IMG/VR virus record: IMGVR_UViG_3300033075_000869
DNA: 39,573 nucleotides
From: a virus
Direction: 5' to 3' (one strand)
Shown here: positions 35,596-39,527 of the stretch, piece by piece
How the letters are laid out: each line of letters opens with the position of its first letter
How positions within the stretch are numbered: the stretch's first letter is position 1
Made by a program: the position numbers and the translations under genes
The notes under the pieces: generated by a model
Told to the model about the DNA's origin: nothing
The model's input: the letters and a program-made list of their open reading frames with translations, nothing else
Database searches by the model: none

Positions 35596-35889
35596 CTATA
35601 AAATTTTTGTCAATGGTTGTTCACTTTTTATTTCATCAGTGCTACAAATAATTTCTACGTTGATATAACCAATTTGTGGTACATTGCCACAAATCATAAT
35701 AGGAACCACAGTCTGTTTTCCAATCGTAGTGACAGGATCATCCATTTCTCCGCCTATAACAATTGCAACGTCGCTTGTATAAAATCTAATATGATCGCCA
35801 AGAAGCGACAATTGATGAACAAACACAAATGGTGAAAAGGCACGATTTAGTGTAACAAGCATCCCCGGGATAATCCGGTGCAGTGTCAT
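35596..35889 (-). CDS. PG-motif small paralog
   Basis: IIPGMLVTL. Confidence 0.4.
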   Translation of the reverse strand: MTLHRIIPGMLVTLNRAFSPFVFVHQLSLLGDHIRFYTSDVAIVIGGEMDDPVTTIGKQTVVPIMICGNVPQIGYINVEIICSTDEIKSEQPLTKIL

Positions 35890-36203
35890 ACGTGTTGAAG
35901 AAAATTTGCTTTAACCCAACCAATTTTATTGGCACCACACACCATGACGTTATCAAATTTAGCAAATTGCGCCAATTGTTCAATCGTCTCGGATTTCATG
36001 ACAGAAACAACAACCAACGTTTCAGAAGCATAAACATCTTCTCCAAACATGCTTGTTTGGTCAAGCGATTGTCTTAGACGAATTACATGAAATCCACGAG
36101 AAATTCCAACCATTTCACCTGGGTAAAACTTCCAAATATCAAATGCTGGTGTATTCTCTGATTTAATCACGGTATTACAACAGTCATATTGTAGATAGAA
36201 CAC
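35886..36203 (-). CDS. PG-motif small paralog
   Basis: FYPGEMVGI. Confidence 0.4.
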   Translation of the reverse strand: MFYLQYDCCNTVIKSENTPAFDIWKFYPGEMVGISRGFHVIRLRQSLDQTSMFGEDVYASETLVVVSVMKSETIEQLAQFAKFDNVMVCGANKIGWVKANFLQHV

Positions 36204-36601
36204 CTAGCAAAGATACGATTGCCAAGATGTGTTTCTATGGGAATAAAGAGATGAAGTATGCGTTCATACTCACCGTATTTAGGATTTGAAATAACAAGTG
36301 CATGATCGTTATAAGGACGTTGTACATATTTGTCGCTGTCATCAAGAATGACATTGATGATGTTGTTACATTTGACAATGCTGCCAGGCGGCGCAATTTC
36401 ATTGTTTCGACGACGACCATACTCAGGCAAAATTCCCGCTTGTTCTTCTTCAGTCAGAAGTTCATATTCAACTTGTCGATCATAAAGCGACAATTTATCA
36501 AGCACGTCATTGATTTGAACACAACGCTCCCAATTCATGGATTCCCATGATGAATCTGTTTTTCTGACTATGGGAGACCATGGCCCGGGCTCAAGAATCA
36601 T
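36167..36601 (-). CDS. hypothetical protein (PG-motif-like)
   Basis: IAPPGSIVKCNNI. Confidence 0.4.
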   Translation of the reverse strand: MILEPGPWSPIVRKTDSSWESMNWERCVQINDVLDKLSLYDRQVEYELLTEEEQAGILPEYGRRRNNEIAPPGSIVKCNNIINVILDDSDKYVQRPYNDHALVISNPKYGEYERILHLFIPIETHLGNRIFARCSIYNMTVVIP

Positions 36602-37035
36602 AATCGTTTATCGCGTTCACACCAGAGAAAATTAATGCGTACAGGTTCACGTGTAACAATCAAAATTTTATCTAGACGATCCCAAGGAATCCAAACGTTA
36701 TCATGTTTAAGAATGCCGCAAGATTTTGATGATTCAACATAATATTCGAATTTATCCCAACCATTTCTACAAGGAAATTCAGTGTAATCTGAGAGCGTAT
36801 ATACGTCATCAGAACCTTTCATCAAGTCATGATTCCATTCACATTCAAATCTCTTTACAAATGTAGATGAAATTCCGTCAAGCGAACTATATGAAAATAG
36901 AGCCTCAACATTTTCATAAATTGCTTCGTAACGTTTCACACCCACAGGCAATGTAATTTCAATATGTGGATCACGATATGGTGACATATGATGTAAGTGT
37001 AACCTTTGTTTAGATGATTTTACACAACACGACAA
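36598..37035 (-). CDS. hypothetical protein
   Basis: ORF of 145 aa. Confidence 0.4.
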   Translation of the reverse strand: MSCCVKSSKQRLHLHHMSPYRDPHIEITLPVGVKRYEAIYENVEALFSYSSLDGISSTFVKRFECEWNHDLMKGSDDVYTLSDYTEFPCRNGWDKFEYYVESSKSCGILKHDNVWIPWDRLDKILIVTREPVRINFLWCERDKRL

Positions 37036-37271
37036 TAGGCACCCACAACATCAAATATACCATGTGACATTGATAGAACGGTAAGCCACGTTGTTATTTC
37101 CGGATTAAGTTTATCATATACGTGCACAGCAATACACAAACCCTCGATGTGTTGGATATCAACATAACTTTTCAATATTTTTTGTTGAACTACACCATTT
37201 GTGTGATAGATTTTAGCATTTTGAGTCTGTGAAATATGAACATAATCTCCGGGCTTGAATCTGCAAGGCAT
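37020..37271 (-). CDS. PGD-motif small paralog
   Basis: MPCRFKPGDYVHI. Confidence 0.4.
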   Translation of the reverse strand: MPCRFKPGDYVHISQTQNAKIYHTNGVVQQKILKSYVDIQHIEGLCIAVHVYDKLNPEITTWLTVLSMSHGIFDVVGAYCRVV

Positions 37272-37684
37272 AATTTTGTATTACCTATTGTTGTATGAAA
37301 ACCACCAGCGGAATCTTGTGGCGTAAATCTTGTTGGTGCCAAACCAAGTTCGGTGCGAATTTCTGAAAGTCGTGGACATCGCACATTAAGCCACCAATAT
37401 ATCTCGTCATTAAATACAAGTGGATTATACCAAAACATTATTCGGGAATTATCGTGGGCTCCCCATGCACCTATTGACGGCTTCTCGTGACGTATGACAG
37501 TTATGTGTGGAGCATACAACGGTTGTTTAACGTAGTGATACTTGGGAATCAATGACCGTGCATATCGAGCTATTTCTGGATCGATTTCAAGCACACAACG
37601 TGGACCTTGGGTTCCGTCAGAATATCTGAGTATTCCAACTGATTCACATGTGTAAGGATGAATAATATTTTGAGTCTGTTCCAT
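37190..37684 (-). CDS. 2H phosphoesterase superfamily protein (LigT / cyclic phosphodiesterase-like)
   Basis: Two H-x-T-x motifs, PHITVI and FHTTIG, about 75 aa apart. ATG verified. Confidence 0.5.
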   Translation of the reverse strand: MEQTQNIIHPYTCESVGILRYSDGTQGPRCVLEIDPEIARYARSLIPKYHYVKQPLYAPHITVIRHEKPSIGAWGAHDNSRIMFWYNPLVFNDEIYWWLNVRCPRLSEIRTELGLAPTRFTPQDSAGGFHTTIGNTKLCLADSSPEIMFIFHRLKMLKSITQMV

Positions 37685-37893
37685 CTGCTAGCCGAATTAT
37701 CTGAAATTCGCCATGTTGTTAGATGATTATCGTCTTTTAGACATGTAAGTGTAACAACAGAATCGTGATGCGAAATGGAAATAATAAGCCAGCGCACACC
37801 CATTGACAATGAATCCCAAGGCGAACAAATACAATCGCCCGGGCGCAATTCCCATACTGGGATGATGTCCCAATCAGTAAACATTTCTGACAT
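37570..37893 (-). CDS. PGD-motif small paralog (trimmed from track ORF 37570-38115)
   Basis: ELRPGDCICSPW. Internal ATG 37891-37893 chosen, because the upstream part of the track ORF conflicts with 37874-38155. Confidence 0.35.
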   Translation of the reverse strand: MSEMFTDWDIIPVWELRPGDCICSPWDSLSMGVRWLIISISHHDSVVTLTCLKDDNHLTTWRISDNSASRWNRLKILFILTHVNQLEYSDILTEPKVHVVCLKSIQK

Positions 37894-38155: not shown

Positions 38156-38354
38156 CCGGATTCTCAACGCTCTTTCTTAGATACAATCCCGGTATAATTC
38201 TATATGAATAATCGATTTCAGTGATCAACAACGTTATTCTCCAATAATCAGGGTGTTCATTGTCGATTACCTTCGATATCATAAACCATTGCCGGCCTGT
38301 GTAGAACTCAGAATAACCCATATCGCCTGGACTTGAATCAACAGGACTCTTCAT
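38118..38354 (-). CDS. PGD-motif small paralog
   Basis: SSPGDMGY. Confidence 0.4.
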   Translation of the reverse strand: MKSPVDSSPGDMGYSEFYTGRQWFMISKVIDNEHPDYWRITLLITEIDYSYRIIPGLYLRKSVENPDEQLQPGNIFDN

Positions 38355-38619
38355 ATGCCGTCAACAATTTGACTGTGTGATCAGACTGTAGTTCTTTGCA
38401 CCCATATATGGGCAATTTTGATATTCGATCACATTCCACATAATGTATGTTGTACCAAGTGATATCATGTCCGAGGACTTTAGCTTTTGCTGCATGCGCT
38501 GATGACAATATTAGTGCAATACGCTTTGAATTGTACCAACAAACGAGATCGCCGGGTTTCAAGTCACTAACACAAACAAAATCATCAGATCCAAAATCAT
38601 GCATTAGCGAATTACCCAA
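38338..38619 (-). CDS. PGD-motif small paralog
   Basis: DLKPGDLVCWY. Confidence 0.45.
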   Translation of the reverse strand: MGNSLMHDFGSDDFVCVSDLKPGDLVCWYNSKRIALILSSAHAAKAKVLGHDITWYNIHYVECDRISKLPIYGCKELQSDHTVKLLTAYEESC

Positions 38620-38815
38620 ACTGATACGAAACTAAATTCATTATATTTTTGATTATTCCGTTGTTCATTATGACGAGATATGTGTCATTAGATTTGTTAA
38701 CGACAGATATGACAAGATGAAAGTCTTTGTTTAGAATAAACATGTCACCTGGGTGCATTTTGTCATATCGACAGCGAATCATACAATTCTTATGAAGCGA
38801 TAATCGCACGACCAT
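38612..38815 (-). CDS. PGD-motif small paralog
   Basis: MHPGDMFIL. Confidence 0.4.
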   Translation of the reverse strand: MVVRLSLHKNCMIRCRYDKMHPGDMFILNKDFHLVISVVNKSNDTYLVIMNNGIIKNIMNLVSYQFG

Positions 38816-39075
38816 CTATTTGTTTCAAGTTTCAGATCGATCGGATTGAACAAACTTAGTGTGATTGTATTGAGGGTTGAATTCATAATTTCCGTATTGC
38901 TTATCTTCAAACCAAATACGGCGATCACAATTATTGTATGATATTTATCAACGCGGCGGGCATGGTCAATACCTGCTGCCATAACAATTACATCACCCGG
39001 CTGTAGATCACCAGCGTTGACATTGCACGCTTCTTTATAGTCGTTATATGATCCAAACATATGTAGTTGGGCCAT
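38779..39075 (-). CDS. PGD-motif small paralog
   Basis: LQPGDVIVMAAG. Confidence 0.45.
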   Translation of the reverse strand: MAQLHMFGSYNDYKEACNVNAGDLQPGDVIVMAAGIDHARRVDKYHTIIVIAVFGLKISNTEIMNSTLNTITLSLFNPIDLKLETNRWSCDYRFIRIV

Positions 39076-39286
39076 TCATTACTGATGAAACACCATAATG
39101 TACAATATATGAATCTTGAAATGCAAATATTGTGTAATCATACTTCGAAAACTCATGTTGTCGAATACCCAAAACAAGTTTCTGTGAATCACGTGCAAAC
39201 TCAGTCCAATAAAAAACATCACCACATTTCAATGACAATGCATCAATCTTCTTTAGTGTCATTGATTTTCCAAATCCATTCATCAC
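39044..39286 (-). CDS. PGD-like small paralog
   Basis: LKCGDVFYW. Confidence 0.4.
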   Translation of the reverse strand: MMNGFGKSMTLKKIDALSLKCGDVFYWTEFARDSQKLVLGIRQHEFSKYDYTIFAFQDSYIVHYGVSSVMNGPTTYVWII

Positions 39287-39527
39287 GAAATGCGCTTATA
39301 CCGGTAAAAATTTTGTCTTCACCTGTACAGGTGTAAATTACACGATCGTCATCACAATATTCAAACGCAACAAAAAGATATAGAAACAAACCCGGTTTTA
39401 TTTGTATCACACCAGATTTTTGTTCAACTGCGTTATGCATTCTTTCATCATAATATGCGTATATATCGCCGGGTTTCAAGTTTTCAATATGTGTAAATTT
39501 GATTACGTTCATATTTTTAGTATCCAC
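39243..39527 (-). CDS. PGD-motif small paralog
   Basis: ENLKPGDIYAYY. The track start is GTG; the first ATG is at 39512. Confidence 0.45.
   Translation of the reverse strand: MDTKNMNVIKFTHIENLKPGDIYAYYDERMHNAVEQKSGVIQIKPGLFLYLFVAFEYCDDDRVIYTCTGEDKIFTGISAFRDEWIWKINDTKED

Follow-up and report, generated by a model that had tools for sequence, protein, structure and literature searches.

A tandem array of small, strain-variable genes with an N-terminal PGD motif in a very large phage

The array of small open reading frames

The window analysed here, that is, the whole stretch of DNA in IMG/VR record IMGVR_UViG_3300033075_000869, is a complete metagenomic contig of 39,573 bp, and its source is a very large phage. 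Its far end is occupied by an array of small genes whose products have a short motif, PGD or a variant of it, close to the N-terminus. On the minus strand, positions 35596-39527 are tiled without gaps by 14 open reading frames (ORFs) of 67-164 amino acids, which abut or slightly overlap and run head-to-tail. A gap of 75 nt (35521-35595) separates them from a gene for a major-vault-protein-like protein, called the vault-like protein below. The motif h-x-(P/C)-G-(D/T/E/M)-h-h, in which h is a hydrophobic residue, lies within residues 7-28 in 11 of the 14 ORFs; the three ORFs without it at the N-terminus are 37190-37684, 36598-37035 and 36167-36601. An earlier sequence-only reading of this DNA had described more than 10 small motif ORFs in tandem from 35.6 kb to the window end and had quoted nine motif strings from them. 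That description holds, and all nine strings are found in the array where they had been placed.

39243-39527, minus strand: array member 1, LKPGDIYAY, 94 amino acids (89 from the next ATG)
39044-39286, minus strand: array member 2, variant LKCGDVFYW, 80 amino acids
38779-39075, minus strand: array member 3, LQPGDVIVM, 98 amino acids
38612-38815, minus strand: array member 4, MHPGDMFIL, 67 amino acids
38338-38619, minus strand: array member 5, DLKPGDLVCW, 93 amino acids, with a modelled SH3-like barrel
38118-38354, minus strand: array member 6, SSPGDMGY, 78 amino acids
37874-38167, minus strand: array member 7, SPGTYLTI, 97 amino acids
37570-37893, minus strand: array member 8, LRPGDCICS, 107 amino acids if an internal ATG is used; the ORF is open to 38115
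37190-37684, minus strand: embedded gene without the motif, 164 amino acids, 2H phosphoesterase-like (weak match), with two HxT motifs
37020-37271, minus strand: array member 9, FKPGDYVHI, 83 amino acids
36598-37035, minus strand: embedded gene without the motif, 145 amino acids, no family match
36167-36601, minus strand: embedded gene without the motif, 144 amino acids, internal PPGSIV at residue 72, no family match
35886-36203, minus strand: array member 10, FYPGEMVGI, 105 amino acids, C-terminal IGWVKANFLQHV, with a low-confidence beta-rich model
35596-35889, minus strand: array member 11, IIPGMLVTL, 97 amino acids, the last before the vault-like gene
32914-35520, minus strand: vault-like gene, 868 amino acids, with MVP shoulder, Vault repeat and SPFH domains, directly downstream of the array

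The PGD array is real and its motif content is far beyond chance. PGD occurs in the first 30 residues of 14 of the 65 ORFs of at most 200 amino acids, against 0.25 +/- 0.5 expected and a maximum of 3 in 2000 per-protein shuffles, which is a 56-fold excess. For PG(D/E/T) the count is 20 of the 65 small ORFs against 0.76 expected, and PGD tripeptides number 18 in all where 1.8 would be expected from composition. The motif begins at about residues 4-28 from the predicted start, a variable distance. Codon choice at the motif is about even, with each of the four codons for Pro (7/6/5/5) and of the four for Gly (9/6/6/2) represented, which places the constraint on the protein and not on the DNA. Apart from 17 nt that are identical in 38338-38619 and 39243-39527 and encode LKPGD in both, the array has no DNA repeat.

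Coding status and gene models

Using a codon model trained on 15 long genes, the annotated frame scored best in all 29 of the small ORFs compared. With stop codons removed from the model, the mean of the array ORFs was near +0.03 bits per codon; 66 spurious open stretches that lie within long genes gave -0.25 +/- 0.17, and competing ORFs in the other frames of the array scored like these. Comparison with strain-level relatives, described below, gave a ratio of nonsynonymous to synonymous substitution rates (dN/dS) below 1 for every orthologous pair, with many synonymous differences. The ratio was 0.20-0.76 in array members, 0.04-0.32 in the other motif genes, and 0.02-0.1 in the chaperonin gene, a gene of 288 amino acids and several conserved small genes; constraint on the array is thus relaxed in comparison with core genes. 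Within the array it was 0.20 for 38338-38619 and 0.7 for 38612-38815, and, against the relative L027, 0.30 for 37874-38167 and 0.31 for 35596-35889. A lack of coding signal, which the sequence-only reading had named as evidence that would tell against it, is not what was found, and the array ORFs are real genes.

The start codon was taken as the most upstream ATG, GTG or TTG, and the starts are therefore uncertain. An independent gene caller run on the matching contig in the Logan collection recovered 9 of the 14 array ORFs, starting some of them further downstream; it also gave a shorter version of 36598-37035 and an opposite-strand (plus) ORF in the stretch 37570-38167. The gene model of this stretch is ambiguous: ORFs 37570-38115 and 37874-38167 overlap in different frames and both are conserved in the strain relatives. 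If the first begins at the internal ATG at 37893, two adjacent motif-bearing genes result. No Shine-Dalgarno-like sequence was evident upstream of the array genes or of the vault-like gene; A-rich sequence lies upstream of the ATG of the latter. It may be speculated that a lack of Shine-Dalgarno sequences would fit a host that does not rely on such pairing, for example one of the Bacteroidota. A scan of the region for sigma-70 promoters showed no enrichment, and terminator-like sites were about twice as frequent as in shuffled sequence (13 against 6.4).

Motif members elsewhere in the window

The sequence-only reading had placed further members at 23272-24863, 16700-17226 and 30842-31378, and had seen the same motif in a plus-strand family A. 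All of these were confirmed, the group at 30842-31378 extending over 30036-31378.

29753-31378, minus strand: second group, downstream of the vault-like gene; 31106-31378 LNPGDILYI, 30842-31093 IFPGDAAIS, 30036-30320 CPGTLFI
30313-30801 and 29753-30076, minus strand: further ORFs of the second group; IGDLVSL (no Pro) and VPGKQIF, the latter related to cluster 0 of the relatives (see below)
23272-24863, minus strand: third group; 23272-23529, 23536-23814, 23793-24005 and 24585-24863, all with N-terminal PG(D/T/S), dN/dS 0.17-0.30
16700-17226, plus strand: two adjacent members, LVPGTLCCV and IAPGTLCYA
4918-5190, 7680-7967, 7964-8314 and 10668-10922, plus strand: family A, MKTGxFTPxPGDLFxWHY, four dispersed paralogues, 45-62% identical

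Profile-profile comparison of the second group (F1-F20) gave P 6e-6. Family A has 14 more homologues, small and unnamed, in related metagenome contigs. In addition, the clade has a 22-member family, marked by (V/I/L)GDLV...GGxIYxI at the N-terminus and by a conserved helix-like segment at the C-terminus, to which 29464-29766 and 30313-30801, both on the minus strand, belong. This family is a Pro-less cousin of the PGD pattern, and profile comparison links it to a second family of the clade (P 1.4e-11).

Distribution and strain-level turnover

The vault-like protein marks the phage clade that bears the motif ORFs. It is 40% identical to genes in the 'uncultured phage' genomes LR756500 and LR756501 (462 kb and 735 kb), and 22 relatives of it were found in IMG/VR contigs of up to 436 kb. 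Where the vault-like protein is at least 59% identical (loci L004-L012, L017 and L022), there are 2-9 small ORFs with N-terminal PG(D/E/T) per approximately 20 kb, against 0-1 in eleven loci with a more distant vault-like protein. Upstream of the vault-like gene, L005, L006 and L007 have 19-35 small ORFs that run in one direction, of which about one third begin (P/V)G(D/E/T). At the DNA level no match to the region was found among 50,697 phage records (megablast). A near-identical contig of 39,451 bp is present in Logan run SRR32380201.

The strain-level relatives are three Logan contigs, L026 (130 kb; SRR16642405_14257), L027 and L028, in which many flanking proteins are 92-100% identical to those of the window. 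All three differ from the window by whole-gene insertions and deletions in the array. The vault-like gene is deleted in L026 and L027, although flanking genes there are 95-98% identical: the first retains only the last 88 codons (8908-9174), and in the second the first 18 and last approximately 60 codons are fused in frame (3419-3658). In L027 the orthologue of 37874-38167 directly adjoins that of 35596-35889, the 2H gene and the three genes after it being absent. The array of L026 runs past the point at which the window ends, with eight more genes that are mutual paralogues and are called subfamily S here. Their consensus is DLxPGDhY...hRLLIYRD..YGYL, and one of the genes holds two modules in a single protein. 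These strain differences, together with the L026 paralogues, show the region to be plastic and make tandem duplication directly visible in the lineage. In describing the family as hugely expanded and fast-diverging, the sequence-only reading is upheld by the clade-specific ORFs, by the strain-variable content and by the dN/dS of 0.2-0.76 in the array against 0.02-0.1 in core genes.

The embedded 2H phosphoesterase-like gene, 37190-37684, shares in this variation. Its HxT motifs are HITV and HTTI, and its match to Pfam 2H-SAK (E 1.6e-4) scores 22.4 bits, under the 27-bit gathering score; a search for PDB sequence relatives found none. Its counterpart adjoins the vault-like gene in L004 (8927-9355), and it is absent from L026 and L027.

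Beyond these relatives little was recovered. A profile of 21 window members, searched against 1.84 billion cluster representatives, returned 15 proteins at E <=0.001, of which 12 were window proteins or their near-orthologues; this search is part of the support for 37874-38167 (P0030) and for the pair at 16700-17226. The other three matches, of 1833, 2247 and 584 amino acids, are eukaryotic repeat proteins that sum many weak repeats, and were judged spurious. A homologue search with the single protein 39243-39527 found only itself, and in a collection of 15 billion proteins the array proteins fall in clusters of one or two sequences. None of 25 window members matched a Pfam family, or a PHROG at E <=0.001. 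As far as searches of this sensitivity reach, the family is restricted to this phage lineage. We found no description of it in the literature on vault proteins, paralogue arrays, and capsid fragments or decoys. The family, or set of families, is new and without annotation, and it belongs to a familiar kind, namely small accessory phage proteins on a common fold.

Relationships among the motif proteins

The sequence-only reading had proposed that the small ORFs be clustered, a hidden Markov model (HMM) built and metagenomes searched. Clustering by BLAST linked only family A, and the global profile search led to near-orthologues only. More was obtained from subfamily S. Its HMM recruits 39243-39527 at E 4.6e-4 from the eight L026 seeds alone and at E 1e-6 after one round of iteration; this is the sole window member to be recruited significantly, 38338-38619 and 38612-38815 being borderline. 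In profile-profile comparison (hhalign) against S, the 38779 group gave P 1.5e-6, the 38338 group 4.9e-6, 38612-38815 7e-4 and the ORF at 37570 1.4e-3, and the first two of these values remain significant after correction for 1035 comparisons. That genes of the same type were duplicated recently is evident from the L026 paralogues and the two-module fusion, from family A, and from three tandem clusters (0, 1 and 2) of the relatives.

In MAFFT alignments of 21-25 members the motif strand is followed by a stretch of variable length (4-40 residues), a hydrophobic strand (hhhIhh) and further strands, with a frequent Trp 10-15 residues from the C-terminus. The alignment itself imposes such a recurrent pattern, which is therefore not independent evidence. 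By sequence, the sub-families (family A and subfamily S) are demonstrably paralogous, and common ancestry of the whole set would be a reasonable inference.

Predicted fold

Two AlphaFold2 models were made. For 38338-38619 the mean predicted local distance difference test score (pLDDT) is 73.7, with 77-87 over residues 11-60, and the predicted template modelling score (pTM) is 0.59. The PGD lies at residues 22-24, strand 1 at 25-28, and long bent strands follow at 33-48, 51-63 and 81-91. Structural matches of this model include the Tudor domains of UHRF1 and UvrD/PcrA, SAWADEE, the uL2 C-terminal domain and a designed SH3, and those listed here are all SH3-like small barrels. The model of 35886-36203 (pLDDT 61.4) is beta-rich, with PGE at residues 28-30 just before strand 1. 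A Foldseek search of predicted viral structures gave nothing at E <=0.001. Neither the 25 window members nor a set of 90 members and relatives matched Pfam KOW (PF00467), EFP_N or eIF-5a at E up to 1, and the Pfam SH3 families gave only sub-threshold matches to single members (SH3_YKFC_2nd, E 0.074; SMN_Tudor, E 0.14). Against PDB sequences the 21-member profile found only an NlpC/P60 protein at E 0.47.

From the models, an SH3-like beta-barrel is a plausible fold. The sequence-only reading had suggested a small SH3/KOW-like beta-barrel. The model of 38338-38619 agrees with this and the weaker, beta-rich model of 35886-36203 does not contradict it, and Pfam yielded no KOW or SH3 match in support. 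We take the Gly-Asp at the start of strand 1, with the alternating hydrophobic residues after it, to resemble the KOW signature. In structural alignments with EF-P domain I, the eIF5A N-domain and the KOW domains of NusG and L24, however, identity is 4-20%, and the array proteins are without the conserved loop bearing a modified Lys or Arg. They also stand alone, with variable N-terminal leaders and tails, and carry no fused OB domain. The pattern GD-x-V-x-H...G of cluster 0 may resemble the N-terminal pattern of CarD; array members, nevertheless, have no Pfam match to the Tudor-like RNA-polymerase-binding domains (UvrD/PcrA C-terminal, CarD/TRCF).

Capsid-protein pieces in related phages

Analysis of the relatives gave an indication of how the module may be used. 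Among 90 motif-bearing small proteins of the clade, 5 match the T4 Gp23 major capsid family in Pfam. Cluster 0 proteins consist of a leader, SQLKTYDxxD, then the module PGDxVxH..G..hhh...VLWS..P, and then a short piece of capsid protein. The pieces were compared with Pfam and with a custom capsid HMM of 44 full-length capsid proteins of related phages, in which the N-arm is 75-129 and the C-terminal strands are 570-630.

N-arm segment, P.VRR..P.L.A.QLVSVQPM..P.G.IFY.DY.YG: Pfam Gp23 3-48, E 2e-10 to 4e-7, above the Pfam gathering score
C-terminal segment: Pfam Gp23 306-352, E 8e-8
Spine-helix segment: custom capsid HMM 351-412, E 2.6e-10 in L004 and 3e-4 in L010

Such pieces occur in seven relatives, always as small separate ORFs, at the following loci.

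L004: 15351-16520
L009: 14253-15166
L010: 13715-16076
L011: 18848-19779
L012: 8644-9246
L017: 9457-9852
L022: 17998-20542

Where more than one piece is present the order is mid, C, N, and all three are present only in L010 and L022 (the mid piece of L022 by BLAST alone). The distance to the intact capsid gene could be checked in one contig only, of 369 kb, where an intact gene of 640 amino acids (L045 5791-7713) is found at a distance of about 150 kb. With its product the pieces share no more than 30-57% identity; they are therefore old and conserved, and neither artefacts of assembly nor the result of recent gene conversion. In T4 gp23 the counterpart of the N-arm piece is the part that includes the Gol peptide, which the Lit protease senses.

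No capsid pieces were found in the window (six frames, E <=1) or in the strain-level relatives with the 44-protein capsid HMM. By eye, 29753-30076 (RKLDITW) and 30036-30320 (RWDQLANY) resemble the spine helix; the capsid HMM did not support this. Nor did BLAST comparison of small with large window proteins give any significant match that would point to tails mimicking the latter. A full-text search of the literature found no counterpart of the capsid-peptide fusions.

Other genes of the window

The window also encodes a Cpn60 chaperonin, an IF-1 homologue, UvdE, an ADP-ribosylglycohydrolase, an RNA ligase and AAA ATPases, several of them in a cluster of auxiliary genes on the plus strand.

17223-22687, plus strand: auxiliary-gene cluster; ADP-ribosylglycohydrolase 17223-18179, AAA ATPase 18198-19526, UvdE 19747-20682, Cpn60 21026-22687
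25428-25772, plus strand: IF-1 homologue, Pfam eIF-1a, E 8.5e-23, conserved in L007 and L010
31411-32121 and 32105-32869, minus strand: paralogue pair directly downstream of the vault-like gene, 29% identity over 242 amino acids, E 1e-28, no family match for either; a single copy only in L026-L028
107-652 and 14226-14759, plus strand: distant paralogues, 30% identity over 70 amino acids; by eye a Nudix-box-like sequence, GG.V......E.AA.REL.EETG (candidate only)
26716-29115, minus strand: gene of 799 amino acids, no family match

The 799-amino-acid product is 57-58% identical to its orthologue in L026 and L027, where adjacent genes are 95-98% identical; against the strain orthologue dN is 0.32 and dN/dS 0.24, which makes it a hypervariable large gene. 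It is possibly related to host recognition.

Discussion

The explanation that we consider best, and to which we would give about an even chance of being correct, is that the array is specific to this lineage, turns over rapidly and encodes single-domain proteins of approximately 65-105 amino acids, built on a small SH3-like barrel of the KOW/EF-P-domain-I/Tudor type. In the models the motif is the turn that begins strand 1, while the segment linking strand 1 to the following hydrophobic strand varies freely in length and sequence, as does the C-terminal tail. Between near-identical strains genes come and go, are duplicated and become fused. The members probably arose through successive tandem duplications followed by divergence, a process directly visible in L026 and family A, and older copies may have diverged until only the turn that defines the fold is recognisable. 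The barrels could serve as binding modules, with the variable loop and tail of each copy recognising a different protein or nucleic-acid partner. The capsid fusions of the relatives, which show the PGD module as a portable N-terminal scaffold, fit this. The genes may have dispensable roles in interaction with the host, such as take-over, anti-defence or exclusion, and not in core replication or morphogenesis.

Several results weigh against this explanation. BLAST of all window proteins against each other links only family A, and most array members are without supported similarity to one another outside the motif; similarity beyond the motif across all motif ORFs as a single family was not found. 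Masking of the four motif residues leaves every window protein at E 4 or above in comparison with the S profile. The HMM links are thus abolished by the loss of four residues, so that for all members taken together common ancestry can only be inferred. A Gly-Asp turn before strand 1 is generic in small barrels and could recur by convergence. Both models were built on a shallow alignment of 21 very divergent window sequences, and only that of 38338-38619 is reasonably confident. Finally, as regards the effector, immunity or anti-defence repertoire that the sequence-only reading had thought plausible, no toxin, immunity or known anti-defence family was detected among the 25 members in Pfam or PHROGs. 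The single family of paralogues put forward in the sequence-only reading therefore stands in part: family A is linked by BLAST, and 39243-39527, 38779-39075 and 38338-38619 by profile to S (with 38612-38815 borderline and the ORF at 37570 weak), and the profile links vanish with the motif masked.

It might be supposed that the ORFs are spurious and that the motif is a DNA-level signal (a repeat, a binding site or a compositional bias) on a stretch that is non-coding or coded differently. The individual codon scores are modest, those of 38612-38815 and 38118-38354 lying within 0.6 standard deviations of spurious ORFs, and Shine-Dalgarno sequences are not evident. This supposition is already effectively refuted by the frame scores, the dN/dS values and the use of every Pro and Gly codon, as well as by the gap-free tiling of the strand and the presence of no DNA repeat but one 17-mer; the vault-like gene, too, is without a Shine-Dalgarno sequence. 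A rather different possibility is that of unrelated orphan genes which acquired a short structural motif independently, in which case this would be a hypervariable region of small beta-rich proteins and no gene family. The missing BLAST similarity, the effect of masking and a second model that is not clearly of the same fold would all be explained. We nonetheless think it unlikely, given the 56-fold and clade-specific excess of the motif and the recurrence not only of h-x-P-G-D-h-h-x-h but of a later hydrophobic strand and a frequent Trp near the C-terminus. Clear duplications of the same type in L026 and family A, P values of 1.5e-6 and 4.9e-6 that withstand a 1035-fold correction, and the 17-nt identity common to two members also argue for a family.

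SH3-like barrels occur among immunity proteins, and orphan immunity genes typically stand in tandem arrays with small, diverse products. The array could on these grounds be a toxin-immunity or effector-immunity cassette region in the style of polymorphic toxins, with the barrels as immunity proteins. Beside it, however, there is neither a toxin domain nor a secretion-related gene, nor any large polymorphic protein whose C-terminus varies, and the setting is a lytic-type huge-phage genome; we regard such a role as very improbable. Proteins that are internal to the capsid or ejected from it, with the N-terminal element as a targeting or processing signal and not a fold element, as in the internal proteins of T4, very varied anti-restriction proteins with just a capsid targeting sequence in common, are a somewhat better candidate, and still a doubtful one. 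At the T-even internal-protein locus (IPI, IPII, IPIII and their replacements), diverse small proteins that counter host defences have only a short N-terminal element in common (PMC3012670), and giant phages carry paralogue families of ejection proteins (PMC5694885). The fusion of PGD modules to pieces of major capsid protein in the relatives also hints at a connection with head assembly. In our set, by contrast, the motif has no fixed N-terminal position, being about 4-28 residues from the predicted start, and it is an integral turn of the barrel in both models. After it come only hydrophobic strand positions and no conserved residue resembling a protease site, and its neighbourhood in the window contains no gene for a prohead protease, a portal or a capsid protein.

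For the array as a set of turning-over barrel genes, the T-even locus is the closest functional analogue, since there too diverse small proteins that counter defences have only a short N-terminal element in common. Both consist of tandem small genes in a hyperplastic region, and at the T-even locus the role is accessory and anti-defence (PMC3012670). The T4 element, on the other hand, is a cleaved leader of approximately 10 residues at the extreme N-terminus, whereas in the array the motif stands at varying distances from the start and belongs to the predicted fold; moreover there is no sequence similarity to the T4 internal proteins, nor are head genes nearby in the window. Lineage-specific paralogue families, for example of ejection or inner-body proteins, are known in the phiKZ-like phages and SPN3US (PMC5694885), and the array resembles these in that phage-specific genes of a very large genome have been duplicated again and again and have diverged. 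The ejection and inner-body proteins are far bigger; they form part of the virion and undergo processing by the prohead protease, while the array proteins have 65-105 amino acids, and relative to gene size the expansion in the array is the larger (about 20 in 40 kb).

The capsid pieces raise a further idea, which we consider improbable: that the PGD barrel is a general-purpose display or adaptor scaffold of the clade, its variable tail carrying peptides copied from structural proteins of the phage. Several bacterial immune systems are known to be triggered by capsid proteins (PMC9712102; 10.1101/2024.07.29.605636). The fusions could be decoys or competitive inhibitors of host capsid sensors, or they could regulate or poison capsid assembly, whether of the phage itself or of competing phages; they may also be decaying remnants. 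If the barrel is such a scaffold, the array members of the window would be further specificities whose cargo peptides are no longer recognisable.

Unannotated small genes number in the hundreds in huge phages, and the finding indicates that in one clade a sizeable share of these are variations on one small barrel. About 20 of the 65 small ORFs of this 40-kb window bear a recognisable N-terminal signature, and their gain and loss between near-identical strains is the behaviour expected of genes for conflict with the host or between phages. The array provides a testable handle on this 'dark matter', with a motif for searching, a fold, and natural variants in which genes are present or absent. 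The capsid-peptide fusions, if functional, would show a virus putting pieces of its own capsid protein to use in a manner that is new, and the interest of the family would be higher should the capsid-peptide display of the relatives prove to be functional and general.

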